DNA of 64,000 bases from Candidatus Woesearchaeota archaeon (GTDB lineage: Archaea > Nanobdellota > Nanobdellia > Woesearchaeales > GCA-2686295): the NCBI GenBank assembly GCA_937912225.1, contig CALDOJ010000034.1, positions 556 to 64,555 on the forward strand. The letters are read 5' to 3'. The notes beneath the pieces were generated by a model, which ran no database searches, had not been told where the DNA came from, and saw only the letters and a program-made list of their open reading frames with translations. Position 1 is the stretch's first letter; the number at the start of each line of letters is the position of its first letter. The translations under genes were made by a program, and so were the position numbers. Positions 2,067 through 46,840 of the stretch are shown here, one piece after another.

Positions 2067-2108
2067 ATATATAAAGCTTTCGATTTCGCAAATCATTTAT
2101 TAACTACT
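2067..2108 (-). promoter_or_regulatory. Putative archaeal-type promoter of grpE-dnaK: the AGTAGTTA box, a BRE-like cgaaag and the TATA box tttatata, read on the minus strand.
   Basis: The minus strand reads cagtagttaataaatgatttgcgaaatcgaaagctttatatat about 60-100 nt upstream of the grpE start. The same arrangement recurs at 35648 and 46812. Confidence 0.4.
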
Positions 2109-2162
2109 GTGCAGGAGTTAAAAAAAGAAACATTTATATATTAGAAGTATTAATAATAAAAT

Positions 2163-2834: not shown

Positions 2835-2839
2835 CTCAC

Positions 2840-25292: not shown

Positions 25293-26678
25293 TCATTTTA
25301 GAATTGTAAAATCAATATCTGCTTTTTCACAAAAGTCGTGGTGGTTTTTATATAACCAAGTATTAACATTATTATTCTGTTGATTATTAAATAAAATATT
25401 AGAAGTAACTTCTCTTAGCATATCAACTTTTTCTTGGTCGTCTGCGTTTTCAAATTGACTTATGAATTTTGTTGTACTATGATAATTTCTTAATGATTCG
25501 TTCCAAGATAATCTTGGCTGTAATTCATGTATAATTGCATCATCAGTTGATGGATAAACCATGAACTCTGCTAGTTCAGGACTTAAATTTGCAACATATT
25601 GTCTTCTTACATCTGAATTAAGAACTCTTTCAAAATAATTTTTTGATTTGTCTAAGTTGTTTAATAAAGTTTTAAACTCCAGATGATTGCCATTATTAGA
25701 ATCTGCTCCTGCTCTAACTGCTGTTTCATATAATTCATTTAAATTCTTTATTCTTCGTTCTAGAATTGAAGGACTTGCATCATAAAATCCTAAATCGACA
25801 AGTTCGATTAAAGTTTTTTGATGTTCGTTCCCATTAAGAACTTCAAGCTCTTTAGGACTTGCATCAACAAATGGATTCATTCCGAAATAAACAACTGCGT
25901 TCTTTGCTTTTTTTGTTGAATATAAATAAAATAAAGTACTATCTTCAGTTCTTATAACACAAGAATTTGTTGAAGCTGAAAACACTTTTGTATCTGGAAC
26001 TTCATACCTTGATAATGAACCAAGCTTTTTTCGTAGTTTCATTGCTTTAGTTGCTAAATCACTAATTTTACTCGGGTTTAATAACGCATTTTTAGGATTG
26101 GATTTTAATTGTTCTAATAACTCAGTAATTTCTAAGAATTTATCAACTGTTCCTAAAGGAGTGTCTAAGACCATTGATAAATCATAAGCTCCTGTTTTAA
26201 ATTTTTCAGGAAATAAATGTGCTTCAGTTAAATCAAGATTTCCTCTTTTACTAGTAACTGTTCCAACTAAACCTTCATGGATTCCAAAATCTCTAATTAA
26301 TGTTTCACCGCTAGTATAAACATTTTCTATTAAAGGATTTAAATATGATCGAGTACTTGAAATGTGATCTGACATTAACTGTCGTAAAGATAAAAAAATA
26401 ACTTTATTTTCTTTATCAGAATAATCAAATCCGCCTGAAATATCAATTGCTTTTGGCAAATTAGCATCAACTTTTACGTCTAAAATATCTGCTAAATGTT
26501 GTTTCTCATCTCCTTTAACAGAATAAAGAGAAGGCAGTTTTACTGTTAAAGATTTCTGTGGTAATAATGATGAGAATTCTAAAAAATCTTGCTCTAGCTG
26601 ATTAGTATGCATTCCATCGCTGCCTTCAGCTATGGTTTTTAATCGCTGTAATCGCATAAGATCTTTTAATCCTTTCAT
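25293..26678 (-). CDS. Hypothetical protein (461 aa). Last gene of the minus-strand supercluster.
   Basis: Long non-repetitive ORF with a 10-nt gap to the upstream gene. No recognisable family. Confidence 0.6.
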   Translation of the reverse strand: MKGLKDLMRLQRLKTIAEGSDGMHTNQLEQDFLEFSSLLPQKSLTVKLPSLYSVKGDEKQHLADILDVKVDANLPKAIDISGGFDYSDKENKVIFLSLRQLMSDHISSTRSYLNPLIENVYTSGETLIRDFGIHEGLVGTVTSKRGNLDLTEAHLFPEKFKTGAYDLSMVLDTPLGTVDKFLEITELLEQLKSNPKNALLNPSKISDLATKAMKLRKKLGSLSRYEVPDTKVFSASTNSCVIRTEDSTLFYLYSTKKAKNAVVYFGMNPFVDASPKELEVLNGNEHQKTLIELVDLGFYDASPSILERRIKNLNELYETAVRAGADSNNGNHLEFKTLLNNLDKSKNYFERVLNSDVRRQYVANLSPELAEFMVYPSTDDAIIHELQPRLSWNESLRNYHSTTKFISQFENADDQEKVDMLREVTSNILFNNQQNNNVNTWLYKNHHDFCEKADIDFTILK

Positions 26679-26688
26679 GTTTATCTAC

Positions 26689-28431
26689 CTATTTTGATCT
26701 TTTTCCATCTTTTTCAAGATTTTTCAAGAATCTTGTACTAGCATCATTAATTCTTGCTTCTTGAGATGCAGCAGTGATTTCAGTTCTTGTTTGAATATAA
26801 TCATCAAATTTTCCAAGAACAATCTTATAAGTTATATTTTTCAATTGTTCATTTCGATAAGCCATATGTTTATCAAAAGTTGCACCTATTAAAGTATCTG
26901 GAAGATCATAATCACTTCCTAATGATCTTAATACGTGACCAACTTCACGATTGCTTAAAGGAGAATCTAATATGTATTGTCCTATCTCAGCCCATTGTTT
27001 ATCTTTAATTGGAATTTCATCACTTCCTTTAGTAATTGTTCTTCGTGCTAATTCTGCAAAGTCAGTCGGGTCATCAAATCTTTTCATTTCAACAATTTCA
27101 TCAAATAATCTGCTTTGAGTAGCATCATCAATTCCTTCAATATAATTAGCATCCATGATTGACATGAACTTTCCGTTTTTTGGAATCATAGTTCCATCAA
27201 ACATTTTAAAGTAAATTCCTAAAGTGTTCTTCTGTTCAGCTGATAAATTAGGGTCATTTCTTGACTGAAAAATTGTATCTGCATCAGCCACATACATAAC
27301 AACTGCTCCAGGGAATGCTTTAATTTGTTCGCCTAATGCAGCCAATTTATTAGATGTTTGATTTTGATAATGAGATGCGTAATCAGTAATACTGTGTGTC
27401 ATAACCCATAAAGGTAAATTATTTTGTCTACAAAGATCTGCAAAAGACCTTAAGTAACCATGAGAAATAAAAGTTTTCCCACTTCCAGGTCCACCAAATG
27501 TGAATATTGTAGATGCTGGTTTATGAGGATTCATTTGTTTTTCTTGGTCATATGCAGATAATTTTTTCATATTCTCCCAAATAACAGATCCTAATTTTGG
27601 AGAACCGTCAAGATAAGTTCCCTCCCCACCTATTACATCTTCTTTTGTTATTGGCATAATTTTATCATCAATAACTACTTGATTGAACTTTCGACTAAAA
27701 TCGTCTTTTGTTATTGAAAAATTACCATATCGAAGTTTTAAATCACTAACTTTATTTTTAGCAGCTATATCTTCAAAAGATTCCCAACTAAACTGATTTA
27801 CCCACGAAGTAAATACTGCTTGTAATGTGTTTTTTAAATTGTCATCAGTTACTTCTTTTCCTTTATTCTGTTGTTGAGTAATAACTCTTGTCAAATCTTC
27901 TGTTGTCATAGTTGTTAATACAGAAGTTAAAGCATCTCGTTCTTTACTCGTTTCATATCTTGTTCCAAAAGCAAAAGTTTTGTCTATATCTGCTTTGTTT
28001 GTTCCTAATAATGCTAATCCAACATGACCAGCAAAGTTTAAAGCATATCTATTTGAAAAAAGTATTGCATCACTTGTTTGTTTTTCTAATTCATAAGTTG
28101 CTTTAGAAGCACTTTTAGATTGTGTTTCTCTAGCTTCAACAAATCCTTTTTGCGAATCTAATCTTCTTTCAAGTGTTATAACATCCATATCTTTTCTTAA
28201 TTCTAAAGCCGCAGCTCTAAAAACACCAACTGATTTTTCAAATACTTCTAAATAATTTATTTGATCAACAGTGTTTCTTGTACCATTTGATAAAGAGTCG
28301 ACAACTAAAGAATAAAGAGTATTTTCTTTTAGTAATCTTTGAGCAGGTTTTCTAACTCCACTAATTAATTCTTTAACATGATCTTGTTCCGAGATAATTT
28401 TTTCATTTAAATCAATTTCATTATTACTCAT
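26689..28431 (-). CDS. Protein with a C-terminal classical AAA ATPase domain and a novel ~270-aa N-terminal region
   Basis: Walker A FTFGGPGSGKTF, Walker B VVMYVADAD, and IMDANYIEGIDDATQSRLFDEI, which resembles the sensor-1/Arg-finger region of classical AAA proteins. Confidence 0.7.
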   Translation of the reverse strand: MSNNEIDLNEKIISEQDHVKELISGVRKPAQRLLKENTLYSLVVDSLSNGTRNTVDQINYLEVFEKSVGVFRAAALELRKDMDVITLERRLDSQKGFVEARETQSKSASKATYELEKQTSDAILFSNRYALNFAGHVGLALLGTNKADIDKTFAFGTRYETSKERDALTSVLTTMTTEDLTRVITQQQNKGKEVTDDNLKNTLQAVFTSWVNQFSWESFEDIAAKNKVSDLKLRYGNFSITKDDFSRKFNQVVIDDKIMPITKEDVIGGEGTYLDGSPKLGSVIWENMKKLSAYDQEKQMNPHKPASTIFTFGGPGSGKTFISHGYLRSFADLCRQNNLPLWVMTHSITDYASHYQNQTSNKLAALGEQIKAFPGAVVMYVADADTIFQSRNDPNLSAEQKNTLGIYFKMFDGTMIPKNGKFMSIMDANYIEGIDDATQSRLFDEIVEMKRFDDPTDFAELARRTITKGSDEIPIKDKQWAEIGQYILDSPLSNREVGHVLRSLGSDYDLPDTLIGATFDKHMAYRNEQLKNITYKIVLGKFDDYIQTRTEITAASQEARINDASTRFLKNLEKDGKRSK

Positions 28432-28433
28432 TT

Positions 28434-29567
28434 TTATACCTCTATAATTCTTATTTGTGTTCCTAACACTGAATCAGCCACTCTTGAAGAATATTTTGCA
28501 GGAGTTATAATCATTTCATCTCTCCAGTCTTCTCGATATATGACTTGTGCTAGTTCTTTTCCTTTTGTTTTATGATTAGGAGCGTAAGTGTATTGTCTTG
28601 AAAATCTTAAAAATCCTGCTTCCGGGTCTTCTTCTAATAATTCTTTTGTTATTGGTAATTGTGGAATTTCATTCGATCCTGTTTGATATTTTGTTTCAAA
28701 AGGACCTATTAAGGATTTTGATACATGAACTGGATGTAAACTTTCAAAGCCTTCATCTATTTTTTTTAAAACATACCATGCAGCTAAACTATCAGAATTA
28801 AATTTTAGTGCAGATCTTAACTGATTAGTTAATTGATATTCACCATTACTATCTTTTTCAATATGTGTTTCTCTAATATCCTGCCATAAATCTATAGTGT
28901 ATGCTTGAAACATTCCAGATGCTAATGAATAATTTACGAACGAGATATTAAATTGAGTTTCTCCAGCGAATGATTTTAATTTTGTAATTGTAGGTTTCAA
29001 ATCACTTGACTCCCAACCTAATAGAGTTGCATCTTTTAGTTGTTCAAGATAATTTATTCTCATAGCTTGTTTATGAATATCTTCAGCTACTCCGCCCACA
29101 TTTCCAATTTCAACATCATCTTGTAATAATAATCTGTCAAGATTTTGAGCTAATTTTGTAAAAGAAGGTAATTTTTTTAGTTTGTCTGGTGCAGATTTTT
29201 TTAGTTTGTTTAAAGCTATAAAATCGAATTGCCAAGGTAAACCTGACGAAGCGTTTATGTTTGCTTCTTCAAAATACCCTTTATTCTTTGAAGGATCATC
29301 TTTAGAAGTTTGCCAATCTAACCATTGATATTCTTCTCTTACAGTTTGAACCATGTTTGAAAGAGTTTTATAAGTGTTAGTAAACTTTGGTAACCTTTGC
29401 CAATCCCAATCTTTTCTTTTTGCAAAGTCTTCCATAGTTTTGAAATGATCAGCTTCTTTTTCAAAAACTAAATTTTGAGCTAATACGCCTAGAAATTTAT
29501 CTATTTGACTCAAGTAACGTGATTGTTCATCTCCTATTAATTTATGTTCTCTCACAACTCTTGTCAT
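28434..29567 (-). CDS. Hypothetical protein (377 aa)
   Basis: Long ORF with an aggtataaaaatg RBS. Trp-rich. No family. Confidence 0.6.
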   Translation of the reverse strand: MTRVVREHKLIGDEQSRYLSQIDKFLGVLAQNLVFEKEADHFKTMEDFAKRKDWDWQRLPKFTNTYKTLSNMVQTVREEYQWLDWQTSKDDPSKNKGYFEEANINASSGLPWQFDFIALNKLKKSAPDKLKKLPSFTKLAQNLDRLLLQDDVEIGNVGGVAEDIHKQAMRINYLEQLKDATLLGWESSDLKPTITKLKSFAGETQFNISFVNYSLASGMFQAYTIDLWQDIRETHIEKDSNGEYQLTNQLRSALKFNSDSLAAWYVLKKIDEGFESLHPVHVSKSLIGPFETKYQTGSNEIPQLPITKELLEEDPEAGFLRFSRQYTYAPNHKTKGKELAQVIYREDWRDEMIITPAKYSSRVADSVLGTQIRIIEV

Positions 29568-29595
29568 TTTTGCACCTCTTTAAAAATAAATTTAA

Positions 29596-29626
29596 AAAAT
29601 GCTCAGCAGATAATCTGCTGGCATGC
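29596..29626 (-). terminator. Candidate intra-operon terminator or attenuator: a hairpin followed by a T-tract on the minus strand
   Basis: The minus strand reads gccagcagattatctgctgagcattttttaaatttattttt. This is a 6-bp stem (cagcag/ctgctg), a 5-nt loop and a T-run. It lies between the stop of 29667..30896 and the start of 28434..29567. Confidence 0.3.
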
Positions 29627-29666
29627 TCAAAACTAAAAATTTCTGAGCAAAAAATAAAAAATAACT

Positions 29667-30896
29667 TCACTGATGCGTTGCATAGTGAGGTTGTTCTGGA
29701 ATAGCAGATAATCTTTGCTGGTTCTCTGCCCATTCCATCTTTTGATTGTTAAGGTCTTTCATAAAGCCTTGAACTTGTTGAGTTACAGCTTCTGCTTTAT
29801 CAACATCATAGATAGGAGTTTTTAATAAATCAAAAACCTCTGCAGCTAAATGCGTAGTTAAATGTGCATTAGCTTCCATTAACTGTTGTGATTTAGCAGC
29901 AACTTCTACTAAAGTCTTTTTAATATCTAAAGCAGCAACACCGGCTGAAGCAATCTTTCCTTGTATTTTAAATACAGGAACCATATCTTCCATTGCGTGT
30001 TTATATTTAATTTCAAGTTCGCTCATTGAGTCTATCAAAGCATTGATAGCTACATAGTTTGCTTTTGAAGCAGCTGCAGCTCCTTTTGCTGATTGAACTC
30101 CTTCTGCCGAGTCTAATATTTCTCTTCTAATACTAGAAACTACTCCATCTGCAGATAATTTTCCATCCAGAACTCCATATTTCATGTCTAAGACTTGAGT
30201 CATTTCACTTGTCAATCTGTCTACAGATTTCAAATCACTTGATTCTTTTGCTACTTGTATTTGACTTTCATAATCAACAAGAACTGTTTCAATATCTTTT
30301 AGTTCTGTTTGTAATTTCTCAACTTCACTCTTTGCTTGTTCCATATCAGAAGAAGTATATAATCCATTTTTCAGACTATCAATTAATTTTTGATCAAGAG
30401 ATTTCATATGAGCAACATTTTCAACTTGCATTGATTCTGCATTTGCTCTTCCATCAATTGCGTTTTGATATTGGTCTCCTAAGACTTCAGCTATACGATC
30501 AACCATGTATTCTAATGCATCTCCTTTTTTTCCAGCTGCATCAATTTTCATTTGTCTAGCTTTTCCTTTTCGTCCAATAAATTCATTGAATTTAATTCTA
30601 ATACCTTCTCCAGTAGTATATAATTTCTTTGAACCAATTAATGTTTGAAAATTAACATTTAATTTTCCATATGTTTCTGCTAATTCAACCATATCTAGTT
30701 GTAAAGCAGCCATTTCTTTGTGAATAGCACCAGTACTTGTTTGTGTTGAAGAAGGCACTTTACCTAATCTTTTTTTGTCCATTTCTAGTGTTTCTTCTGA
30801 TGCGTCAAACGCTTCATACACTTCTTCTTTAGAAGTTGATTTTTCAACTTTATATTTATCAGTTAGTTCTTCCAATTTTGTTTTTTGTTCACTCAT
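29667..30896 (-). CDS. Long coiled-coil protein (409 aa), all alpha-helical. A TelA- or PspA-like architecture is possible but unproven.
   Basis: Heptad-rich sequence throughout. Strong RBS (aggaggaataaaatg). It has its own promoter-like region upstream. Confidence 0.6.
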   Translation of the reverse strand: MSEQKTKLEELTDKYKVEKSTSKEEVYEAFDASEETLEMDKKRLGKVPSSTQTSTGAIHKEMAALQLDMVELAETYGKLNVNFQTLIGSKKLYTTGEGIRIKFNEFIGRKGKARQMKIDAAGKKGDALEYMVDRIAEVLGDQYQNAIDGRANAESMQVENVAHMKSLDQKLIDSLKNGLYTSSDMEQAKSEVEKLQTELKDIETVLVDYESQIQVAKESSDLKSVDRLTSEMTQVLDMKYGVLDGKLSADGVVSSIRREILDSAEGVQSAKGAAAASKANYVAINALIDSMSELEIKYKHAMEDMVPVFKIQGKIASAGVAALDIKKTLVEVAAKSQQLMEANAHLTTHLAAEVFDLLKTPIYDVDKAEAVTQQVQGFMKDLNNQKMEWAENQQRLSAIPEQPHYATHQ

Positions 30897-30963: not shown

Positions 30964-30990
30964 AGTAGTTATTATATATAAATGTTTCTA
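30964..30990 (-). promoter_or_regulatory. Putative promoter of the 29667..30896 unit, with a TATA box, a BRE-like box and an inverted AGTAGTTA 8-mer
   Basis: The minus strand reads agaaacatttatatataataactacttcg. Two 14-bp direct repeats (aaaaaagagtatat) sit in the downstream 5' leader at about 30905-30960. Confidence 0.35.
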
Positions 30991-32421
30991 TTAAAAGTCT
31001 TTAATATCATATAAACCACCTATTGCACTGCCAACATCCCTGATCATACCGCCCGCGAATTGCCCGTTTGAAACAGGAACAACTTTAGTATCAGGTCCTG
31101 CAGCCATTCCAATTTCTTTAGTTATAGCCCGAGTACTTGAGTTTCCATCAATTAAAAACAATCTAAGCATGATTTCAGGACAATCTCGAAATTTAGAAGC
31201 TGAATTAATAGCTGCTTCAACAGAATCAGGCGCTCCATCACTAATTAAATAAGCAATAGAAGGACCTTTGCCTTGCAATACGTTAAACAACCAATCTAAA
31301 GCTAAATGAGTAGGTGTGCCACCATAAGGATGCACATTCTTCATCAAATCAGCAGTAGAAACAGGCCTAACTGAATCTTGACTATAAACAGATAAATAAA
31401 CATTATTCGAAGGATTTAATTGTCTCATCAAAGAATGATTAGCAAGAACAGTCTTTTGAGCCATAGAAAAACGATCACCCTCCATACTACCACTAAGATC
31501 AAGACTCATAGCAGTATCAATAGATACTTTAGTAGACTCAAAACTCTGCGATTTACCAACAATTAAATAAGGAAATTGAGGCTTTCTATAACCTCTTGTA
31601 CGAGAATAAATAGTAGATTGAACCCAATCAACATCAGATAATTCAGATAAATCTTCCATTTCATCCCAATGATCAACTACACCATCATAAGTTCTTTTTA
31701 AGTTTGACATGAACCCAGAATGACCGTCAGATGTCTCAATACCTTTAACAATTTCATCCAAAAAGATATCTTCTAAAGACTTCACAATTTGTTGCTCATC
31801 AAACTGCAGAACACCAGATTCATTAGATACATATTCAGAACTTTCAATAAAAGTTTTAAGTTTCTCTTTAGCAATTCTTGTAGCATCTGTTTTAATATTA
31901 ACTTCAGATTTTTGATCTTCCAGTTTAGATTCAATATCACCCTTCTTATTCTCAAATTCATCAGCAATGTTTCGAGTTTGTTCTTCTTTTTCAGTTATAC
32001 TCTGTTGATAAGCATCAGAAGCACCAACTAAATAATCATTAGCGCCACGCACAGCATCAGTATTATTAAGCAAAGTTTGTTCTGCTTGACTTAAAGCTAA
32101 AAGTTCATCTGTAAGATTAGCATCATAAACTTCTTGAATACTATCCCTAGTTTCAATTGCATAGGCTTCAATCATTTTATCAGTTTTTTTTGCATACCAA
32201 CCTTTGAAAACTTTTTTTCCAACAGCAAGTCTAAGACGAGCAGAACCAGATAAATCAAGAAAATCATGAACTATTTCACGAAAAACTGTTTCAGATTTAT
32301 AACGATTAGAAAAACGTTCAATAAACTCTTCTAATTGAGGAACTTGAGAAATACCACTAAAAGAACTAACAGGTTCTTGACCTTCATTCACAATTTCATC
32401 TATTTTATCTTCCATTTTCAA
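30991..32421 (-). CDS. Protein with a coiled-coil N-terminus and a C-terminal vWA domain
   Basis: MIDAS LDLSGSM, GGTPTHLALDW and ISDGAPD in the last ~190 aa. The N-terminal ~270 aa is a helical coiled coil. Confidence 0.75.
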   Translation of the reverse strand: MKMEDKIDEIVNEGQEPVSSFSGISQVPQLEEFIERFSNRYKSETVFREIVHDFLDLSGSARLRLAVGKKVFKGWYAKKTDKMIEAYAIETRDSIQEVYDANLTDELLALSQAEQTLLNNTDAVRGANDYLVGASDAYQQSITEKEEQTRNIADEFENKKGDIESKLEDQKSEVNIKTDATRIAKEKLKTFIESSEYVSNESGVLQFDEQQIVKSLEDIFLDEIVKGIETSDGHSGFMSNLKRTYDGVVDHWDEMEDLSELSDVDWVQSTIYSRTRGYRKPQFPYLIVGKSQSFESTKVSIDTAMSLDLSGSMEGDRFSMAQKTVLANHSLMRQLNPSNNVYLSVYSQDSVRPVSTADLMKNVHPYGGTPTHLALDWLFNVLQGKGPSIAYLISDGAPDSVEAAINSASKFRDCPEIMLRLFLIDGNSSTRAITKEIGMAAGPDTKVVPVSNGQFAGGMIRDVGSAIGGLYDIKDF

Positions 32422-33227
32422 AATAATTTATAATTAAGTACTTTCCAGACTTTTCTACCAAATCGATAAATAGGCCCGTCTTTTTGTTCAGTAGCAGTTT
32501 TTCGTTGCCAAAAATGTTTCTTCTCAACTAAAGTATCAAGAGTTTCACCTTCTAAAGGATCAATCTCCCCTTTAACAGTTGCAAGATCTAAAGCTCTTTG
32601 AATATTAGAACTCCCATAATAAGCAAAACTTTGATCTGCATAAGCAGGATCCATACTGGAAACATCAAGATGACTTACACGTTTCTTTCGTTTAGCTTTT
32701 TTCTTTTCAGGACCTGAATAACCATCTTGTAAAGCATCATTAATTCTCATAAGTTTTTCATAAGCTTCACGACCGCCAACTGCTTGTAATTTCTCTTCAA
32801 TTCTCGCCCTCATTTCATTAAGACGAGCTTGAGCAGCAGTATACGCTTTATTTGATGAATCAACTTTAGAATCGGCGTCTCTTTTAGCTCTTTCTTTATC
32901 AGCAACTTCTTTACCAAGAGTTTGTTCAATTTCAAAAAGAACTTGTTCTTTTTCAAATTCTTCTGCAGCAATAGCTTTTTTTTGTTGATAATCAAGCTTA
33001 TCAAGTGCAGCATCTTTTTGAAACTCAAGATTCTCAGCGATTTGTTCAGATAACTGTTCAATAATACTATAATCATTAAGAATCGCATCAACAGCATTTG
33101 TTGCAGAAGAGCCATTCTTCCAAGCATCAACCATTGCACGCTTAATAACTTCGTCTATATTAGAAAAATCAATAGGCGGAATACGAAATAATGCACAATC
33201 CGCTAACCTATAATCGCTAAGTCTCAT
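32418..33227 (-). CDS. Coiled-coil protein (269 aa) with a basic patch
   Basis: Helical with a KKKAKRKKR stretch. It overlaps the next gene by 4 bp. The Lys/Leu-rich ORF inside it in another frame is spurious. Confidence 0.55.
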   Translation of the reverse strand: MRLSDYRLADCALFRIPPIDFSNIDEVIKRAMVDAWKNGSSATNAVDAILNDYSIIEQLSEQIAENLEFQKDAALDKLDYQQKKAIAAEEFEKEQVLFEIEQTLGKEVADKERAKRDADSKVDSSNKAYTAAQARLNEMRARIEEKLQAVGGREAYEKLMRINDALQDGYSGPEKKKAKRKKRVSHLDVSSMDPAYADQSFAYYGSSNIQRALDLATVKGEIDPLEGETLDTLVEKKHFWQRKTATEQKDGPIYRFGRKVWKVLNYKLF

Positions 33228-33237
33228 TGTTCAGAGA

Positions 33238-35532
33238 TTACTTTTCTCCACCAATTTCACAACTAGTGTTCTCTCTGCTCTTCATAAAATACTCCATCGA
33301 TGTAATTAATTCAGAAACAGTTATTTCACCAAAGTTTGGTTGTTGTCTAAACAAGTAATCCATGAAAGGAAACATTATTTTTGCTTCTTGTTGTCTCTTT
33401 GAAGGATTCGGACTATAAGCCTGTTTAACTTGGTTAAAATTAGCAGTTGCAACTTCAACATTATTTTCATATGAATCTAATTCTTGAATTAAATTATCTT
33501 CAATTTCAGGAATTTGAGTCTTTGCAATAGCAACTTCTTTATAAGCTCTGCACCACCAAGTATCTTCTTCTCGATTCAAGACATCATTAAAATTGTTCTC
33601 AACCCATCCAATAAGTGCCTCTTTAGAACTAATATCCGCGTCACGAGTACTTTCTTGAACTCTAGAACAAAAAGCGAATTGAATACCAGAAATAGCATAT
33701 TCTGCAGTTGCAACTTCAGGAGCTTCTTCATAAAACAATTTATCAAGAGTTAATTGTGCTCTTGCAGCATCTAATGCATCAAACTTTGCACGATTACTTC
33801 CAGTTTCTTTTTGCTTTCCAGCACCAGTATATTCTGCTCTAAATTTTAAAAATAAAGCATCAACTGCTCGTTCAATAATTACAGGCATTTGAACCTTTCT
33901 AATTGATAACTCACCATTATCTCTGTGCGTATCTCCAACGTCATAAGATTCAACTTCATTTGCTTCTTTATGATAACCTTTTCTAGTAATACTATAACTA
34001 GTATCTTCATCTGTTGGATAACGAATAGCCATAAGAGCCATTCGATCATTCAAAGGACCAGTAAACACAGTATGATCATTCGCAGTTCCAATTATTAAAG
34101 CATCCGCAGGATATTCAAATCTTAATTGATCAGGTTTAATAGTTTCATCTTCAAGCGCTTTTAACATGCTACTATAAGCTTGAGGTCTTAACTTATCCAT
34201 CTCATCAAAAAATGCAATGCCATTATTTGTTCTTACAAGCAAACCTGCATGAAATCCTTCAGGATCGAAGTCACTTTCTCGTTTACCAGTTGTAGTACCA
34301 TCAAGTTTAGGAGTTTTATAACCTGCCAAATCCATTCGTTTTAAACCTTCAGTTCCTTCTGAACTTTCAATACCCATACCTTTACCATACTTTGCAACTT
34401 TGACTTTTACATCTTTAGCAGCAGGTTTTTTGAAAAAACCAGTATCTTTAAAATTAGGGTCGTAAGAAATTTTACATTCAGGACAAGCATCAATTATTTT
34501 TGAAAAGTCCTCATCAAAAAGACTATAAGGATTACATTGTGCTTGACAACCATCAACAATGAAAATAACTTCTTGTTGTTGTGCAATATCAATAATATCT
34601 GCACTAATTTGCGATTTTCCACCACCCGGAGGACCATAGAAAACAAAGTCTTTTCCAAGTAATAAAGCCTTTACAACTCTTTCGGCTCTTTTTGTACTAA
34701 TAACAGTTTTTGGAAAGAATTCGCCAAGAACATATCTTTTAATTTCTTCTTCTTTATCAGCAGGAACTATTTGTCCTAAACTAGAAGCTTGAATATCTTC
34801 ATAATGACCATTAATTCCTAATTTAAAGTTAGTTCTTCTTCCTTGTTTAGCAATAGGTTCATCAAACTCGACATCTATTGTATTACGAGAAGGCACATAA
34901 TGTTTAAGCATAGCAGTTGCTCCCGCCTCAATTTTAATTCCACCACTAATTCGTTCAGAATTAGAATCCCAAACACTTGATGCATCAAATCCTTTTTTAA
35001 ATCTGATCTTATGTCCAAGTTTTTTATCAGCAACAACTTCATCATCAAGAGAATAACCAACAGTTATAGTTCTCTTTCCAGGAAATAGTTTTAAATTATT
35101 CAAAGGAACATATAATCCATGTTCATCATTAAGAGCACCATTCAAATTATTAGCACCTTCAAATCCTTTATTAAATTCAATTCCAACTAAAGGTACTCCT
35201 CTAGTAGTTATTGGCGTTTTAATAACTCCCTTCATACCAGCTATAGGTCGCCCTTCATAATTAGACATTGCTTCAACTTTCATTCCTTCTTGAGCATACT
35301 TCATTATTTCCTCAGCACCAGTTACTAATGGAGGAACTTTTTCAGTTATACTGTTGAATGCAGAATTCCATTTTCCAAGCATTTCATCATTTATTTGCGG
35401 TACAATTGTTTTGAGAATTGACTCTAATCTTCTACGAGTGATTAAAGCGAGATGTGTTGAAGAAGTTTTTGGAACAACTCCTAAATTTACTAAATCTTTT
35501 CCTGTTTTGACCTTAAGGTAATCTTCAAGCAT
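33238..35532 (-). CDS. AAA+ ATPase of the ChlI/MCM/ComM-like clade. A Cys4 zinc-ribbon insertion lies between Walker A and Walker B.
   Basis: Walker A FYGPPGGGKSQ, CQAQCNPY...CPECK insertion, Walker B IAFFDEMDKL, sensor-1 IIGTAN and Arg-finger-like LNDRMALMAIRY. RBS ggaggcg. A promoter sits upstream. Confidence 0.8.
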   Translation of the reverse strand: MLEDYLKVKTGKDLVNLGVVPKTSSTHLALITRRRLESILKTIVPQINDEMLGKWNSAFNSITEKVPPLVTGAEEIMKYAQEGMKVEAMSNYEGRPIAGMKGVIKTPITTRGVPLVGIEFNKGFEGANNLNGALNDEHGLYVPLNNLKLFPGKRTITVGYSLDDEVVADKKLGHKIRFKKGFDASSVWDSNSERISGGIKIEAGATAMLKHYVPSRNTIDVEFDEPIAKQGRRTNFKLGINGHYEDIQASSLGQIVPADKEEEIKRYVLGEFFPKTVISTKRAERVVKALLLGKDFVFYGPPGGGKSQISADIIDIAQQQEVIFIVDGCQAQCNPYSLFDEDFSKIIDACPECKISYDPNFKDTGFFKKPAAKDVKVKVAKYGKGMGIESSEGTEGLKRMDLAGYKTPKLDGTTTGKRESDFDPEGFHAGLLVRTNNGIAFFDEMDKLRPQAYSSMLKALEDETIKPDQLRFEYPADALIIGTANDHTVFTGPLNDRMALMAIRYPTDEDTSYSITRKGYHKEANEVESYDVGDTHRDNGELSIRKVQMPVIIERAVDALFLKFRAEYTGAGKQKETGSNRAKFDALDAARAQLTLDKLFYEEAPEVATAEYAISGIQFAFCSRVQESTRDADISSKEALIGWVENNFNDVLNREEDTWWCRAYKEVAIAKTQIPEIEDNLIQELDSYENNVEVATANFNQVKQAYSPNPSKRQQEAKIMFPFMDYLFRQQPNFGEITVSELITSMEYFMKSRENTSCEIGGEK

Positions 35533-35647: not shown

Positions 35648-35676
35648 TATATAAATGTTTCGATTTGTAACTACTA
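35648..35676 (-). promoter_or_regulatory. Putative promoter of the AAA+/vWA unit: the AGTAGTTA box, a BRE-like cgaaac and the TATA box tttatata
   Basis: The minus strand reads cttaatagtagttacaaatcgaaacatttatatac, about 115 nt upstream of the ATG at 35532. Confidence 0.4.
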
Positions 35677-35698: not shown

Positions 35699-36835
35699 TT
35701 AGAAATAATTCCTAATCATATCAGTAAAAGCCCTAGCAATATTATTCAACTGCCTTTTTTCAAACTTTGTTTCAGCAAGAGTTTGACCCTCTAAAGGTTT
35801 ATCAGAACCTACACCAGCAAAGAAATATCTTACTGCATCAACACCATCATAATGATTATGATAACTAGCCATAGGGCCCCATTCCATATCAATAGTTGTA
35901 GCACCAAGATCTCTTGCTTCTTCTAACACAACTCTTTTTTGTCTTAAGATTGATGCAGTATTCAAAGTCGAACCTTCATGAAATGAACCAACATATTTTT
36001 CAAGCATTTCCGTAGCTTTAGGATTAATTAATAATTGATTATTAATTGGATAAATTGTTTGTAAATTATCCTTCAATAATTTCTCATCCATAAATCCTGT
36101 TGGTACAAATACATCTCCAACATTAGCTTTTGAATCTAAAACTCCAACTTTACCATAATGAAAAATATTAACCCACGCACCCAATACTTCATTATTAGTT
36201 GCTAAACAAAATTGTTCTATAACATTCTTTGCCTGGTCAGCAAAAACATAATCAAAATTAACAGCAAAATATCCGCCCATGTCAAGCAATCTGTAATTCA
36301 AAAAATCATTTTTTATTTCATCAATTACTTCAATACCTTCATCTAATGGAAAATTATCAAACGGTCCAAAAATAACATTTAAAACACCATCATGAGTAAA
36401 CTCTTCAACATCCAATCTATCATAAGCCTCATTTACAAGTTCAAATGCTAAATCTCTAAATCTTGCACTTGCAAATTTTTGTTCGCCACCAAAATGTTTT
36501 ATATCCCAGTTTAGTTTTTGTTCTGTTGCTCTTCCTAAAATACCAAAATGATGCCTGATTCTATCATAACGTATATCGCCTTTAGTATTTATTACATGAA
36601 GCGTTCCTGTTGCTTCATCATAGAAATTGCTTTCAACAGAAGCAATTGGTTTAAACTTGAGAAAGCCCCCCATCTCAGGTTCTACTTCCTCTGGTTTAAA
36701 TCCATTATGAAGAACTAAATGTTCTAAGTTCTCAAGTTGTTTTGCCCTGATTGCCTCATCAGGATGCAGTTGTCTATCAACAGTATATTGCACTCTTTTT
36801 TCATCATCCATTAAATCTGTATATATATCAGTCAT
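35699..36835 (-). CDS. Phosphorylase-superfamily (PNP/MTAN-like) nucleosidase-domain protein with an N-terminal extension
   Basis: VGDVFVPTGFM (resembles GDVVV), ATTIDMEWGPMA (resembles the VEMEAAA catalytic-region motif) and FFAGVGSD (resembles RAISD), all in the C-terminal half. Confidence 0.65.
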   Translation of the reverse strand: MTDIYTDLMDDEKRVQYTVDRQLHPDEAIRAKQLENLEHLVLHNGFKPEEVEPEMGGFLKFKPIASVESNFYDEATGTLHVINTKGDIRYDRIRHHFGILGRATEQKLNWDIKHFGGEQKFASARFRDLAFELVNEAYDRLDVEEFTHDGVLNVIFGPFDNFPLDEGIEVIDEIKNDFLNYRLLDMGGYFAVNFDYVFADQAKNVIEQFCLATNNEVLGAWVNIFHYGKVGVLDSKANVGDVFVPTGFMDEKLLKDNLQTIYPINNQLLINPKATEMLEKYVGSFHEGSTLNTASILRQKRVVLEEARDLGATTIDMEWGPMASYHNHYDGVDAVRYFFAGVGSDKPLEGQTLAETKFEKRQLNNIARAFTDMIRNYF

Positions 36836-37070: not shown

Positions 37071-37850
37071 CTACCTATTTTTACCACTCTTTAGTGGTTT
37101 ATTCAAATATTTTTGCATATGATTGAAAGGATCGTCATAACAAAGACAACCAAGAGGAGTTAAAAAATCAGAGAATGTTTGTGCATAAGCAACCAAATCA
37201 CTTATTAAATCTTTATGGTCTTGAAAATTTTGATAAACAACTTCTCTGCCAACAACTCTACCTTTGTTAAGTTCAGATTTATTAATACAATGATCTTTAA
37301 TTAACCAATCAATTGTTTCAGTATCATTAGGATCAAAAATAGCACCAAAATCAATTTGATTAATTTTCAAATCACCAGTTAATAAAACATTAACAGCTCG
37401 CCTATCTTTCAAAGCTAAAGTGTTAACAAGCTCCATTGAATAACCAAAACTATATGCAACTTCCAATTCTTTACCTTCAGGAACATAAAATTTTTTGCCA
37501 GGAAGACCTTCCATCATGACGAGATTTTCATTATGAAGGCCATCCCAAGTAATAAAATTGTGATTCGCACCAGCCAAAATATTATCCAAAGCCATACCAA
37601 GAGCTTCTCTAGAAGCACCTTCCAAAGAAGTTTTAACATAAACATCTTTCTTAGAACCGTTCTTAAGAACAGCTTCATACTTATCAACAGAATAACCAGT
37701 TTTAATTTCAGAAACGTGTTTGAACTTCACAGGTTTTTCACCAAACAAAACACCAGATAATTGTTTAATTCTTCGCGTACGATAATTAAAATGACTAGGT
37801 GCAGGCGGAAGACGAACACGACCAAGAAGTTTATCCAAATCAACATTCAT
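37071..37850 (-). CDS. PI3/PI4-kinase-like atypical kinase-fold protein, group A paralog 6
   Basis: DVYVK Lys, alphaC Glu (SREALGM), catalytic loop ALKDRRAVNVLL and IDFGAIF. Confidence 0.7.
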   Translation of the reverse strand: MNVDLDKLLGRVRLPPAPSHFNYRTRRIKQLSGVLFGEKPVKFKHVSEIKTGYSVDKYEAVLKNGSKKDVYVKTSLEGASREALGMALDNILAGANHNFITWDGLHNENLVMMEGLPGKKFYVPEGKELEVAYSFGYSMELVNTLALKDRRAVNVLLTGDLKINQIDFGAIFDPNDTETIDWLIKDHCINKSELNKGRVVGREVVYQNFQDHKDLISDLVAYAQTFSDFLTPLGCLCYDDPFNHMQKYLNKPLKSGKNR

Positions 37851-38605
37851 CGAGCAACCCCCAAATAATCACACATATAAACAAACGGATCATCACAAAC
37901 AGGTTTTTGAACACAAGTGAAATCTTCAAAAGACCTTGCATAAACAATTAAATCTTCAATTAAATTTTTATTATCTTTAAAATTTTGACGCACCACTTCT
38001 TTACCAGCAACTCGTCCTTTATTTAATTGAACAGAATCCATACTATGAAAATCAATTAAATATTCAATAGAACCATTATCACCAGGATAAAAAAGCGAAC
38101 CAAAATCAATATGATTAATATTAAAGGTTTCAGTTAACAAAACATTAGTAACCCATCTATCTTTAAGAGATAAAGCATTTACTAATTCCATCGAATATCC
38201 AAGATTAAAAGCAACTTCTTTTTCTTTGCCTTTTGGCACATAAAAATCCTCTCCAGGAAGATTTTCCATCACCAGATTATGATTACCAAAACGATCATCC
38301 CATAAAAAATAATTATGACCTGCATCTTGCAACATATTTGCCAAAGTCATTCCAAGCGCTTCTTTGTAAACACCTTCCCAAGACTGTTTAACATAAAAAT
38401 CCTTTTTTGAACCATCTTGAAAAGTAGCTTTATACATATGAACAGTTGATGCATGACCAAGATCACAAGAATGACTAATTTTCTTAGGCATTTCATCAAA
38501 TAATAAACTAGATAATTGTTTAATTCTACGCTTATAAGTATTAACATTAAAAGGCTCAGGAAGTTCAACAATTCCAAGATGTTTATCTAAAACAATATCA
38601 GTCAT
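37847..38605 (-). CDS. PI3/PI4-kinase-like atypical kinase-fold protein, group A paralog 5
   Basis: DFYVK, LKDRWVTNVLL and IDFGSLF. 4-bp overlaps on both sides. Confidence 0.7.
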   Translation of the reverse strand: MTDIVLDKHLGIVELPEPFNVNTYKRRIKQLSSLLFDEMPKKISHSCDLGHASTVHMYKATFQDGSKKDFYVKQSWEGVYKEALGMTLANMLQDAGHNYFLWDDRFGNHNLVMENLPGEDFYVPKGKEKEVAFNLGYSMELVNALSLKDRWVTNVLLTETFNINHIDFGSLFYPGDNGSIEYLIDFHSMDSVQLNKGRVAGKEVVRQNFKDNKNLIEDLIVYARSFEDFTCVQKPVCDDPFVYMCDYLGVAR

Positions 38606-39399
38606 CGAGAAACCCCCAAATAAAGTTTCATATGAGTAAAAGGATCATCTAAAATATAATCATCCTCTTCAGAACACATTTTCTTAGAAAAATAATTAAC
38701 CATTGATTCAATCTCAGGTTGATATTTTAAAAAATTATTACGAATAAGTTTATAGCCATCAATTGTTCCTTCAGAAACAGCATCTTCATCTAAATGAAAC
38801 CATTTAATATGGTAATCTCCTTGAAATAAATCCTTATGATAAAATAAACAATCATTATCAAGATGTCGAACAGCTCCTTTTTCAGATACTAGTATGTTTC
38901 CAGCATGTCGATCATCTAATGCTAAAGTTCTAGCCAATTCTAAAGCAATGCCAAAAGAATAACTAATTTCAGTTTTTAGAGTTTCAGGAAAACCCAATCT
39001 AGAACCTCGCAGTTGATCAATAACAATCATTCTTTCAGGAGTTGAATCATCTAAAGAATCTGAATAAAGAAATTTTTGTTCTTCACCAAGTAATAAATTC
39101 TGTAAAGTTATGCCAACCGCTTCAAACAAAGGATGAGATTTTGGTTCTTTTGCAAAGAAAGTTTCTGAACGTCCATTTTCAAGCAAGATATTAAAACCTG
39201 TAATAGTAGTATAAATCTCCTTTAACATAGCAATACCAAAACTTTTAATTGAAGCTATTTCATCAACTGAAACACCATATAAATCTGATGCAACTTTCTT
39301 TTGAAGAGCTAAATCCTCATGAAAAGTTTTAAGACTGGGAAGAGCAACTTCATAACTAAACAATTCTTTTACAGTATCAGAAAGTTCAGGCAAACTCAT
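38602..39399 (-). CDS. PI3/PI4-kinase-like atypical kinase-fold protein, group A paralog 4. Its DFG position is degenerate.
   Basis: TFFAKEP, LDDRHAGNILV and HLDNDCLF, which has no DFG. Confidence 0.7.
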   Translation of the reverse strand: MSLPELSDTVKELFSYEVALPSLKTFHEDLALQKKVASDLYGVSVDEIASIKSFGIAMLKEIYTTITGFNILLENGRSETFFAKEPKSHPLFEAVGITLQNLLLGEEQKFLYSDSLDDSTPERMIVIDQLRGSRLGFPETLKTEISYSFGIALELARTLALDDRHAGNILVSEKGAVRHLDNDCLFYHKDLFQGDYHIKWFHLDEDAVSEGTIDGYKLIRNNFLKYQPEIESMVNYFSKKMCSEEDDYILDDPFTHMKLYLGVSR

Positions 39400-40148
39400 C
39401 GCTTAACCCCCAGATAATCACACATGTAAGCAAACGGATCATTCAAAACATCAGGTCTTGAAGCAAAAGGTATTTGTTCATCAACCCAATCAACAACCAT
39501 TTTAATATCATCTTTATTATCAATAAATCGTTGACGAATAGCTTCATGAGCTGAAAGTCTTCCTTTGTTAAATTTACGACGACTTAAACCATAAGCATCT
39601 GCAACTTTCGCACCAGTTATCAAATCTTTTTCATCAAATAAACATTCATAATCAATATGTCTGATAGTTCCTCTCCCATCAACTAATAAGTTTCCAGTAT
39701 TTCTATCTTTTAAATGCAAAACCATTTCTAATTCTGAAGCCACACCAAGATTAAAACTGGCTCTTTTCTTACGACCTACATTTTTAAAAATTCTTCCAGG
39801 AATCGCTTCCATCAAAATAGAACTAGGATCTGTTGTATAATCATCAAGTTGAGGAATTGCATAACTCCAATTCTCACCAGTTAAAACATTGTTCAAATAC
39901 CAACCAAGTCCTTCTAATAAAGAACCTGTATGAAAACAATCTTTAACATAAAAAGTCTTATTAGAACCATCACCCAAAGTTAATTCATAACCTTTAATCA
40001 TTTCTTGATTAGTAATTAAACTACTAGAAACAATTTTTTCATCAATACCAAATAAAGCTTTAGGAACATCAGCCATTCTTTTCTCAGAATATACATCATA
40101 AAAAGAAGGAACATCTCCAATCCGAAGTAATTTTTCAGGCGAAGTCAA
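39396..40148 (-). CDS. PI3/PI4-kinase-like atypical kinase-fold protein, group A paralog 3
   Basis: TFYVKD, LKDRNTGNLLV and HIDYECLF. Confidence 0.7.
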   Translation of the reverse strand: MTSPEKLLRIGDVPSFYDVYSEKRMADVPKALFGIDEKIVSSSLITNQEMIKGYELTLGDGSNKTFYVKDCFHTGSLLEGLGWYLNNVLTGENWSYAIPQLDDYTTDPSSILMEAIPGRIFKNVGRKKRASFNLGVASELEMVLHLKDRNTGNLLVDGRGTIRHIDYECLFDEKDLITGAKVADAYGLSRRKFNKGRLSAHEAIRQRFIDNKDDIKMVVDWVDEQIPFASRPDVLNDPFAYMCDYLGVKR

Positions 40149-40936
40149 TTTATTTCACCCTCTAATTTTTGTTTTATATAATCAAAAGGAGAAATAGTTT
40201 CAAACAATTCAGATCTTAATAAACCATCATAAGCCCAGTTAGCCAAATCGCGAATTAGTTCTTCATTAGTTTTGAAATTAACTCTCATCTCTTCACGAGC
40301 ATCAAGTCTGCCTTTTTCAAATTCCTCTTCAGAATAACCACTATTCTTAACTAATTGTTTACCAGTTCGATCATCCCAACCAGCCCAAAATAATGCTCCA
40401 AAATCTATATTACGAATTACTAAGTTATCATCAATTAACATATTAGGACTTCTTCGATCAGCAAGATTTAAAATTTTGGCAGATTCAAAAGCCCGACCCA
40501 TTGAATAAGAAATTTCAGTTAAGAAATCATAATTAACATTAAAAGTTGTTCCAGGAACTTCATCCATAATAACCACATTAATAAAATTATCAAGCAAATC
40601 CAATTTATTAACTAACATCAAGAAATTTCTGTCTTCACCAGTTAATAGATTATTCAAAGTAATACCAACTGCTTCTTGAAACGCACCAGTCACATAGCAA
40701 TCTTCTTCTTCTTTAACATAATAAGTTTTAGAAGTTCCATCTTTAAGCATTAATTTATGACCTGCAACGTTCGAATTTCCAGATGCAAAAGGTTCATCAA
40801 TAAGAATATCGTCTGAATCAACCCCATACATTTCTCTAGCAACATATCTGCCTAAATTTTGAGAATCAAGAAGAGTAACTTCATCAGTAAAAGGCCTATA
40901 ATTCAACAAGTCTTTCATTCTATCTGGAAAACTCAT
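40145..40936 (-). CDS. PI3/PI4-kinase-like atypical kinase-fold protein, group A paralog 2
   Basis: TYYVKE, LADRRSPNMLI and IDFGALF. Confidence 0.7.
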   Translation of the reverse strand: MSFPDRMKDLLNYRPFTDEVTLLDSQNLGRYVAREMYGVDSDDILIDEPFASGNSNVAGHKLMLKDGTSKTYYVKEEEDCYVTGAFQEAVGITLNNLLTGEDRNFLMLVNKLDLLDNFINVVIMDEVPGTTFNVNYDFLTEISYSMGRAFESAKILNLADRRSPNMLIDDNLVIRNIDFGALFWAGWDDRTGKQLVKNSGYSEEEFEKGRLDAREEMRVNFKTNEELIRDLANWAYDGLLRSELFETISPFDYIKQKLEGEIN

Positions 40937-41736
40937 TTCTCAGCCTCCAAATAAAGTTTCATATAAGAAAAAGGATCTTCAATATGCTTTTCATCATCCA
41001 AATATTGCAAACCAGATTGTTCGCTAAAATATGTTAATACATCTTTAATTAATGATTCATTATCTAAAAAATTTTTAACAATTATTTTTCTTGCATCTGA
41101 TTGTCCTTGTGAAACTAATTCTGCATCAAGTCCCAGAACATATCCTCCTTTAAAAATATCTTTTAACATTCCAAGATTCCAAGAATATTCTTTATTAAAA
41201 ATAGTTTCATAATCAACATTTCTAATAATAGAATTTTCACAAATAACCAAATTTGAATTATTACGGTCGGTTAAAGAAAGAGTTTTAGCCAATTCTAAAC
41301 TAGCACCAAAACTTTGACTCATATTAGTACTAGCATCATTAAAATATGTCACACTAGTTCCAATATCTTCCATAGCAACATAACCAAATTTCCAATCACC
41401 AGTTTCAGATCTGCTAGCAACAAAGTTATGGTTTTCACCTAAAAGAATATTGCTTAAAGTCCAACCAACAGCTTCACTTAAAGAACTTTCAAGACATTTC
41501 TTATAATAAAATTGTTTAATTAAACCATCCTTAAAAAGAGTTTCATATACTCGAGTGTTAGGAGACCAAACAGTATCTAAGAAATTAACAGTTATAATTT
41601 CTGATTCAGGAACACCATAAAGTGAACTTGCAACAGACTCCATAATATCAGGATTATTTTTAACTTTTGAAAAATCTGGAAGAGAGGTTAACCTAAGTAA
41701 ATCTTCAATCTTTGTTTGAGTTGATTGTTTAGTCAT
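40933..41736 (-). CDS. PI3/PI4-kinase-like atypical kinase-fold protein, group A paralog 1
   Basis: QFYYKK, LTDRNNSNLVI and VDYETIF. Confidence 0.7.
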   Translation of the reverse strand: MTKQSTQTKIEDLLRLTSLPDFSKVKNNPDIMESVASSLYGVPESEIITVNFLDTVWSPNTRVYETLFKDGLIKQFYYKKCLESSLSEAVGWTLSNILLGENHNFVASRSETGDWKFGYVAMEDIGTSVTYFNDASTNMSQSFGASLELAKTLSLTDRNNSNLVICENSIIRNVDYETIFNKEYSWNLGMLKDIFKGGYVLGLDAELVSQGQSDARKIIVKNFLDNESLIKDVLTYFSEQSGLQYLDDEKHIEDPFSYMKLYLEAEK

Positions 41737-42224: not shown

Positions 42225-42225
42225 T

Positions 42226-43256: not shown

Positions 43257-43257
43257 T

Positions 43258-44160: not shown

Positions 44161-44161
44161 T

Positions 44162-46811: not shown

Positions 46812-46840
46812 TATTTAAATGTTTCGTTTTTTAACTACTT
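46812..46840 (-). promoter_or_regulatory. Putative promoter of the 12-gene array: the AGTAGTTA box, a BRE-like cgaaac and the TATA-like box tttaaata
   Basis: The minus strand reads gttactataaagtagttaaaaaacgaaacatttaaatag, 40-70 nt upstream of the ATG at 46773. Confidence 0.4.

Follow-up and report, generated by a model that had tools for sequence, protein, structure and literature searches.

The 64,000-nucleotide (nt) stretch of Candidatus Woesearchaeota archaeon DNA analysed here (contig CALDOJ010000034.1, positions 556 to 64,555; the whole stretch is called the window below) encodes on its minus strand a cluster of seven genes arranged in two modules. Module A is a triad comprising an AAA+ ATPase of 764 amino acids (aa), a helical protein of 269 aa and a protein of 476 aa that combines a coiled coil with a vWA domain. 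Module B comprises a 409-aa coiled-coil protein, two orphan proteins of 377 and 461 aa, and a second ATPase of 580 aa belonging to the classical AAA clade. The original prediction, made from the sequence of the triad region (30991-35532), regarded the three genes as the unit. Our analysis extends this to the four downstream genes (25293-30896), which are conserved together with the triad; the functional unit is seven genes, and the triad is only half of it. On balance, and with moderate confidence, we regard this two-module system of DPANN archaea as a soluble two-motor machine for protein remodelling.

Conservation and distribution of the gene cluster

The triad lies within an unbroken run of minus-strand genes, in the order AAA+ ATPase (33238-35532), 269-aa protein (32418-33227) and 476-aa protein (30991-32421). 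All three predicted open reading frames are real and form one tightly packed unit. Of the 4-bp overlaps that were said to join them, the one between the 269-aa and 476-aa genes exists if the latter starts at a TTG, public gene calls starting at an ATG two codons downstream, but the AAA+ and 269-aa genes are separated by a gap of 10 nt. Module B follows on the same strand with the genes of the 409-aa protein (29667-30896), the 377-aa orphan (28434-29567), the 580-aa AAA ATPase (26689-28431) and the 461-aa orphan (25293-26678).

Hidden Markov models (HMMs) of the seven families were run on all open reading frames of 31 loci, 19 of which came from a metagenome scan with the vWA family. The AAA+, 269-aa and vWA genes were colinear in 22 out of 22 loci with enough sequence, the 269-aa gene always being placed between the other two. 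Lack of joint conservation of the triad in related genomes had been named as an outcome that would refute the original prediction; joint conservation was borne out. Contigs with AAA+ homologues nearly always carry the genes of module B as well; all seven genes were found in 14 loci, and in 19 loci the 409-aa gene directly follows the vWA gene. The arrangement of the modules is variable: module B is located ahead of the triad in L003 and L015, is divergently transcribed in L006, is separated from module A by four unrelated genes in L001, and is not adjacent to module A in L007 and L009. According to locus tags, module B of the L009 genome is found on the same contig, 11 genes away. The flanking genes are different at every locus.

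The seven families diverge in parallel, with mean identities of 32-49%. Vectors of pairwise identities from the eight complete loci correlated between families with r 0.80-0.94, in a small sample in which one close pair of loci supplies much of the signal; these values fit inheritance as one unit. No transmembrane segments were detected in any of the seven families, and all seven products are therefore taken as soluble proteins of the cytoplasm.

A promoter upstream of the triad had been proposed. The element GAAACATTTATATA indeed precedes module A (35648-35661, minus strand), about 115 nt upstream of the ATG of the AAA+ gene, but it resembles an archaeal B recognition element (BRE) with TATA box and not a sigma-70 promoter, as is to be expected since the host is a DPANN archaeon. 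An identical element is located upstream of the 409-aa gene (30975-30988, minus strand). As the same element stands ahead of each module, the cluster is read as two transcription units. Further copies were found at 2127-2140 (plus strand) and 46812-46825 (minus strand), the latter heading a run of kinase-like genes. The 14-nt element thus occurs four times in the window, once with a single mismatch, compared to 0.12 expected occurrences, and each copy precedes the start of a gene or operon. Its 12-nt core is also present ahead of the AAA+ gene in L009. The element looks like the strong BRE/TATA promoter of this organism.

All but two of the named homologues derive from metagenome bins of Woesearchaeota, Pacearchaeota or 'Nanoarchaeota'. 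Two contigs depart from this pattern, a partial one of 2 kb in a Nitrosarchaeum bin and one of 65 kb in an Acidobacteriota bin; both are probably misbinned. The most divergent relatives, with 22-27% identity, also belong to Woesearchaeota, including GW2011_AR15. About 50 sequence clusters among 5.8 billion carry relatives. When 1.84 billion representatives were searched exhaustively with HMMER for relatives of the 461-aa protein, only 91 were found, 57 of them under 1e-30. A scan of genome contigs gave a single true locus, the other matches being due to the generic Walker A pattern. No relatives were found in phage records by tblastn with the AAA+ protein, nor in IMG/VR by scans with the AAA+ and 377-aa families. 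These searches point to a rare, DPANN-restricted and chromosomal system. Literature searches on DPANN combined with vWA, MoxR or AAA found no published description of the cluster.

Encoded proteins and neighbouring genes

Translation of the 764-aa gene bore out all of the AAA+ motifs that had been read from the sequence. These are Walker A GPPGGGKS (34612-34635), Walker B FFDEMD (34195-34212) and the stretch IIGTANDHTVFTGPLNDRMALMAIRY with sensor-1 and the arginine finger (34018-34095), all on the minus strand. In an alignment of 40 full-length homologues sharing 38-51% identity, G300, G303 and K306 of Walker A, the catalytic E444 of Walker B, N485 of sensor-1 and the arginine-finger residues D496 and R497 are invariant. 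An AlphaFold2 (AF2) model built on this alignment is confident throughout (pLDDT 91, pTM 0.82). It consists of a helical N-terminus (residues 1-52), an SH3-like barrel (about 80-150), a second beta domain (about 155-250), the AAA+ module (260-520), and a helical lid and C-terminal domain (550-753). The barrel (35083-35295, minus strand) is seen in the strands of the model and is matched by Pfam SH3_12, the SH3-like domain of Xrn1, in 4 out of 8 orthologues (best E 4.3e-7). A gap in the alignment indicates that it is missing from the shorter relatives P0043, P0044 and L011.

A search of the PDB with the family profile identified BchI (1e-10), ChlI (1e-6), MCM7 (5e-5) and the 'serine protein kinase' chain 9xip (PrkA, 5e-4). 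In the Foldseek search with the model, MCM chains reached an E-value of 4e-11, with a template modelling (TM) score of only about 0.3 and a root-mean-square deviation (rmsd) of about 30 A, compared to a TM score of 0.65 and an rmsd of 6.4 A for BchI. Pfam gave short and weak matches to Mg_chelatase, AAA_5, MCM and Sigma54_activat. Taken together, the profile, Foldseek and Pfam matches therefore place the AAA+ core in the pre-sensor-1-hairpin/helix-2-insert superclade, which also includes MoxR, dynein-midasin and NtrC, beside ChlI and MCM, in agreement with the ChlI/MCM type originally proposed. Secondary structure assignment of the model by DSSP shows a hairpin at residues 376-392 and short strands at 463-475, which we infer to be the named beta-hairpin inserts of this superclade.

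Membership in the ChlI, MoxR, MCM and PrkA families was rejected in each case. The ChlI/BchI model PF01078 matched with 25.9 bits over residues 430-486 only (profile positions 100-158 of 207), and the chelatase models TIGR02031 and TIGR02442 scored 21.6 bits against a cut-off of 499 and 13 bits against 779, respectively. A gene set of ChlI type is not present either: the vWA partner lacks an AAA half, and no H- or CobN-like gene was found in about 30 loci. Concerning MoxR (COG0714), whose members have about 320 aa, no AAA_3 (PF07726) match was obtained at E<=0.1, whereas a canonical MoxR protein of locus L011 does receive bpMoxR, AAA_3 and AAA_lid_2. The nearby gene for a vWA co-chaperone that typifies MoxR is present, the vWA gene being the second one downstream in 22 out of 22 loci. 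For MCM, PF00493 scored 22.0 bits, below the gathering score of 23.3, NF040949 scored 15.9 bits against 940, and the cysteine site lies inside the AAA+ module. The PrkA/YeaG model PF08298 reached 16 bits, with a cut-off of 25, in a match that spans only 44 residues, and the surveyed loci contain no DUF444 or SpoVR neighbours. With family scores that are far under the curated cut-offs or extend over no more than about 55 residues, the 764-aa protein is no standard orthologue of Lon, ComM or Mg-chelatase; such orthology would have spoken against the original prediction. In databases its homologues are named 'hypothetical protein' or generic 'MoxR-like ATPase'. PADLOC, PHROGs and NCBIfam returned generic AAA fragments only, and nothing for the partner proteins.

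The four cysteines reported between Walker A and Walker B are present in the form CQAQC-x16-CPEC (34474-34548, minus strand), following strand beta-2 of the AAA+ core. C329, C333, C350 and C353 are invariant in the 40 homologues, so that a four-cysteine site binding a metal, putatively zinc, is well supported by the alignment. Two details of the original description need revision. First, the '~140-aa insertion' corresponds to the whole spacing between Walker A and Walker B (137 aa from Lys306 to Asp443, 137-143 aa in relatives). This stretch includes normal elements of the AAA+ core, among them strand beta-2, in addition to the cysteine module, the beta-hairpin 376-392 and conserved loops. The equivalent distance in the classical AAA protein of the same cluster is 64 aa (K319 to D383), which leaves a true excess of about 70 aa. 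Second, a zinc-ribbon fold is not established. According to DSSP the second cysteine pair is located at the N-terminus of a helix in the model, and the site looks more like a treble clef.

The 269-aa protein is composed of a conserved N-terminal motif DYRxADCxLFRxPP, a coiled-coil or helical middle part, a variable low-complexity linker and a conserved C-terminal tail KVWxVLNYKLF. Its description as basic refers to a property that is not conserved, with isoelectric points (pI) of 5.9 in the window and 5.0-9.7 among the orthologues; a KKKAKRKKR patch of the window protein is likewise not conserved. Searches with the coiled-coil protein gave only chance matches to coiled coils.

The third product of module A was described as a coiled-coil partner with a complete C-terminal MIDAS vWA domain, and AF2, Foldseek and invariant residues all agree with this. 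A single helix of about 105 residues (73-177; 31891-32205, minus strand) was assigned by DSSP in the model and is read as a coiled-coil stalk. Heptads were scored by a crude home-made heuristic that served as support only. The vWA domain (31012-31524, minus strand) was modelled with a pLDDT of about 90 for residues 300-470. Its structural matches were Rpn10, TRAP, integrin I and TFIIH p44 (E 1e-8 to 1e-5, TM up to 0.69). The metal ion-dependent adhesion site (MIDAS) consists of DLSGS (31486-31500) together with T369 and D395. Its residues D308, S310, S312, T369 and D395 are invariant in 14 sequences, the family alignment comprising 14 close homologues, and metal binding is predicted.

In module B, the 580-aa protein is assigned by sequence to the classical AAA clade of Cdc48/VAT, katanin and Msp1. 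PF00004 matched 7 out of 7 family members (best E 1.7e-15), and VAT, Afg2, katanin and Msp1 were on top of the PDB profile search with E ~1e-8. The protein has a unique N-terminal region of 290 aa, the Walker A motif GGPGSGKT and a conserved aromatic pore-loop residue, Tyr351. Sensor-1 Asn429 and Arg441 are retained as well. Its Walker B motif (residues 379-386; 27274-27297, minus strand) deviates from the canonical hhhhDE pattern, reading D-A/V-D (D383-x-D385) without glutamate in 7 out of 7 sequences. According to hhalign, the two AAA proteins of the cluster have the P-loop region alone in common, and homology beyond it was rejected.

The 409-aa protein is helical. TelA (PF05816), with its cut-off of 30 bits, was matched in 2 out of 8 orthologues with E-values of 2e-4 (21 bits) and 6e-3 (16 bits), both matches being colinear with the C-terminal third of the Pfam model; the weak TelA likeness of the C-terminal third of the protein should be taken as a lead and not as a finding. 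The three coiled-coil proteins of the cluster showed no paralogy in hhalign comparisons. For the 377-aa and 461-aa orphans no Pfam, PDB, PHROG or PADLOC relatives were found, and Pfam scans of all members of both families gave nothing consistent. In 41 sequences of the 377-aa family D150, E203, D271, H278 (within HPVH), E291 and Q341 are invariant, and H281 and H332 nearly so. This suggests an active or metal-binding site.

Several genes near the cluster deserve mention. Nine tandem paralogues of 250-496 aa with 24-52% identity are located upstream of the triad (37071-41736 and 43258-46773, minus strand). They carry the PI3/PI4-kinase signature DRHxxN...IDFG, and PF00454 matched weakly to two of them. 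The array, whose size is unusual for a small archaeal genome, is interrupted by three tandem paralogues of about 190 aa with 32-44% identity (41733-43352, minus strand). Both families are absent from all 30 other loci. Hence, the kinase array is not the constant neighbour of the triad that had been considered possible, and this neighbourhood is particular to the present genome. Directly upstream of the triad, a 378-aa protein (35699-36835, minus strand) matches DUF6909 and PNP_UDP_1 of the nucleoside phosphorylase superfamily just above the Pfam gathering scores; no homologue was found in any related locus. 

Two related loci also contain noteworthy neighbours. In L011, a canonical operon of MoxR (AAA_3), DUF58 and BatA/vWA genes (215-3114) lies directly upstream of the seven-gene cluster, which places a standard and a new AAA+/vWA system side by side. 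In the GW2011_AR15-like locus L014 (11580-17907), ten paralogues arranged in tandem, each of about 200 aa, come after a divergent module B. Their N-terminal hydrophobic segments and Thr/Pro-rich linkers make them look secreted or lipoprotein-like. A ThiF (E1-like) gene is located upstream on the opposite strand. The tandem array of L014 is not homologous to the kinase array of the window, so that an equivalence of the two was ruled out.

The remainder of the window, with a G+C content of about 32%, contains ordinary cellular genes, among them those of a copper P-type ATPase, a UvrD-type helicase, a DEAD-box helicase, a peptidase U32 and an FAD oxidoreductase. No tRNA, tmRNA or other Rfam family was found in it. 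In a 699-aa helicase (13159-15258, plus strand), the UvrD/Rep core is joined by an RQC domain at the N-terminus and an HRDC domain at the C-terminus, an unusual fusion of RecQ-type accessories with a UvrD-type motor.

Possible functions of the cluster

The findings described above cover the genes that are present, the identity of their domains, the intact catalytic motifs, the conserved gene order and the confinement to DPANN. The mechanism proposed here is derived by analogy with BchI-BchD, the MoxR-vWA pairs and p618-p892 from Acidianus two-tailed virus (ATV). Ring assembly, contact between the AAA+ and vWA proteins, capture of clients by the MIDAS and cooperation of the two modules would be its elements. 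The 764-aa protein would form an ATPase ring of the BchI/MCM type (helix-2-insert, pre-sensor-1 hairpin), on which the coiled-coil vWA protein would dock as a co-chaperone. The metal site of the latter could grip an acidic residue of a client protein, which would be pulled or reshaped through ATP hydrolysis, while the 269-aa helical protein may act as a third subunit, adaptor or stalk. Module B would add a classical motor of the AAA unfoldase type, the 409-aa coiled-coil protein and the two orphans; its proteins are the most likely clients, scaffold or effectors.

Precedents for such a mechanism have been described. In ATV, the MoxR protein p618 binds the vWA protein p892 and its ATPase is stimulated; filament-forming p800 is bound as well (PMC4124505). 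MoxR and vWA proteins are described as chaperone and co-chaperone, a captured peptide being released in a form remodelled by the AAA+ protein, and one class, bacterial MoxR-vWA-FtsH, adds an AAA of the classical clade within variable conflict systems (PMC7159879).

Several points weigh against protein remodelling by two cooperating motors. The 764-aa protein is not a canonical MoxR or ChlI protein, so the analogy would have to bridge a large sequence distance, and its best Foldseek E-values are for MCM proteins, helicases whose substrate is DNA. In L007 and L009 no module B adjoins module A, and in the divergent Woesearchaeon L014 module B is recognisable with no module A within 10 kb. The two modules may thus work independently. 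Judged from its Walker B sequence, the 580-aa protein may be a slow ATPase or an ATP binder only. Furthermore, the proposal, built as it is on analogy, names no client.

It is conceivable, though rather doubtful, that the seven genes build an intracellular structure specific for DPANN. This would be a coiled-coil, possibly TelA-like scaffold of cytoskeletal or sub-membrane nature, perhaps at the site of host contact, which the two AAA+ motors would assemble and dismantle and to which the MIDAS vWA protein would couple them. If true, it would represent a new kind of archaeal cellular machine without a characterised counterpart.

Another function to be weighed is conflict or defence, the cluster being a 'ternary' MoxR-vWA system in which the AAA+/vWA pair would arm or free an effector, perhaps the 377-aa or 461-aa orphan, upon attack by a virus or by the host. 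The rare and patchy distribution (about 50 clusters among 5.8 billion and 91 relatives of the 461-aa protein), the changing flanks and shuffled module order, toxin-antitoxin genes close to the cluster in L005 and L012, and the enzyme-like invariant residues of the 377-aa orphan would suit such a role, as does the published MoxR-vWA class with a classical-clade AAA (PMC7159879). The hallmark of these systems is effector swapping, and they are enriched in multicellular bacteria rather than in DPANN (PMC7159879). The present loci are uniform in protein lengths and architectures, contain no recognisable nuclease, protease or TIR effector, and have seven families diverging in parallel at 32-49% mean identity. 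PADLOC recognised generic AAA fragments only. We therefore regard a defence function as unlikely.

The Foldseek result raises the question of whether the 764-aa protein is an MCM-like nucleic-acid motor, either helicase or translocase, so that the cluster would act on DNA or RNA. MCM chains are the top matches in alignments of about 680 columns, and the succession of a beta-barrel N-terminal region, a zinc site and an AAA+ module echoes MCM. The Walker B sequence DEMDK resembles IDEFDKM of MCM. The Lys/Arg patch in the 269-aa protein of the window and the match of the vWA model to TFIIH p44, a helicase regulator, point in the same direction. Against this stand the poor superposition despite these E-values, the position of BchI as best sequence-profile match, the Pfam and NCBIfam MCM scores, and the location of the zinc site within the AAA+ module and not in an N-terminal OB domain. 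In addition, the proteins have acidic pI values of 5.3-6.6, neither a winged helix nor any other domain for DNA binding was detected, and the basic patch is not conserved. A nucleic-acid motor is thus distinctly unlikely.

Chelatase- or maturase-like insertion of a metal cofactor is quite improbable. In this scheme the 377-aa protein, rich in His, Asp and Glu, would receive a metal from the AAA+/vWA pair in the manner of BchI-BchD, CobS-CobT or NorQ-NorD. It draws on BchI as the closest solved relative, on the MIDAS vWA domain borne by partners of the BchD type, and on the invariant D150, E203, D271, H278 and E291 and near-invariant H281 and H332 of the 377-aa family. It leaves the second AAA protein, the coiled-coil proteins and the 461-aa orphan without a role, no large subunit like BchH, ChlH or CobN was found in any locus, the vWA protein lacks the AAA-like N-terminal half of BchD, and the NCBIfam BchD and cobaltochelatase scores are trivial. 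A distant stress or dormancy module of the PrkA/YeaG-YeaH type, pairing an AAA+ protein with a vWA-like DUF444 partner, is hardly credible: the faint AAA_PrkA matches at Walker A in the window protein and many homologues, the profile match to chain 9xip and the likewise long spacing between Walker A and Walker B in the AAA domain of PrkA are outweighed by the low PF08298 score over 44 residues, the lack of the PrkA C-terminal domain and of a DUF444 or SpoVR partner in any locus, and the far better scores of BchI and MCM in the PDB profile search.

DPANN archaea have genomes of about 1 Mb, depend on hosts, and most of their lineage-specific genes are without known function. For so small a genome, a 10-kb cluster of seven genes that encodes two ATP-driven motors represents a large investment. 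Hence, it probably has an important role in the lineages possessing it. In AAA+ enzymology, the cluster adds a well-modelled family next to Mg-chelatase and MCM with a metal site inside the ATPase fold. It also provides a natural case of ChlI-type and Cdc48/katanin-type motors encoded together. As the proteins are soluble, complex formation, ATPase stimulation and client capture are directly testable.

Comparison with known AAA+ systems

The combination of an AAA+ motor with a vWA protein is already known. The new features are an AAA+ family with a zinc module and additional N- and C-terminal domains, a coiled-coil vWA partner, a third subunit, and the constant linkage to a second module with a classical AAA protein and to two orphan families.

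The cluster resembles BchI/ChlI-BchD/ChlD in that, among solved structures, BchI comes closest to the AAA+ core and in that the partner of the motor has a C-terminal MIDAS vWA domain. Unlike BchI with its approximately 350 aa, the 764-aa protein contains an extra helical N-terminal part, the SH3-like barrel, a second beta domain, the four-cysteine module and a helical C-terminal domain of 200 aa. The vWA partner differs from BchD and ChlD by a coiled-coil N-terminus in place of a degenerate AAA+ half. In contrast to Mg-chelatase, a porphyrin-binding H subunit is not present here, and chlorophyll synthesis is not known from the host lineage.

MoxR-vWA pairs such as RavA-ViaA, CbbQ-CbbO and NorQ-NorD share with module A an AAA+ motor of the same superclade encoded beside a MIDAS vWA co-chaperone, and likely also client capture by the vWA protein followed by ATP-driven remodelling. 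Unlike in these pairs, no AAA_3 or AAA_lid_2 match was found in the 764-aa protein, and the present system has extra domains, a zinc module, a helical protein as its dedicated third subunit, and a second motor in the linked module. The ternary conflict systems (Kaur et al. 2020) likewise combine an AAA+ protein, a vWA protein and a third protein, one class including a classical-clade AAA. They have a canonical MoxR, vWA proteins whose C-terminal effector domains vary greatly, and a VMAP, iSTAND or double-FtsH third component (PMC7159879). Membership of the cluster in this group was rejected on the basis of its uniform lengths and architecture and the lack of effector or PADLOC matches.

In archaea, the proteins p618, p892 and p800 of ATV offer a parallel of an AAA+/vWA pair with coiled-coil or filament-forming proteins (PMC4124505), and ATV ORF618 was among the viral fold matches. 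The ATV system is viral with a canonical MoxR, whereas the present cluster is chromosomal, has no IMG/VR or phage relatives, and includes a second AAA protein. MCM, finally, gave the best Foldseek E-values and shares the order of a beta-rich N-terminal region, an AAA+ module and a C-terminal helical domain as well as a similar Walker B motif. It differs in its poor global superposition (TM ~0.3), the different position of the zinc site and family scores below threshold, and in the vWA partner that accompanies the 764-aa protein in the cluster.

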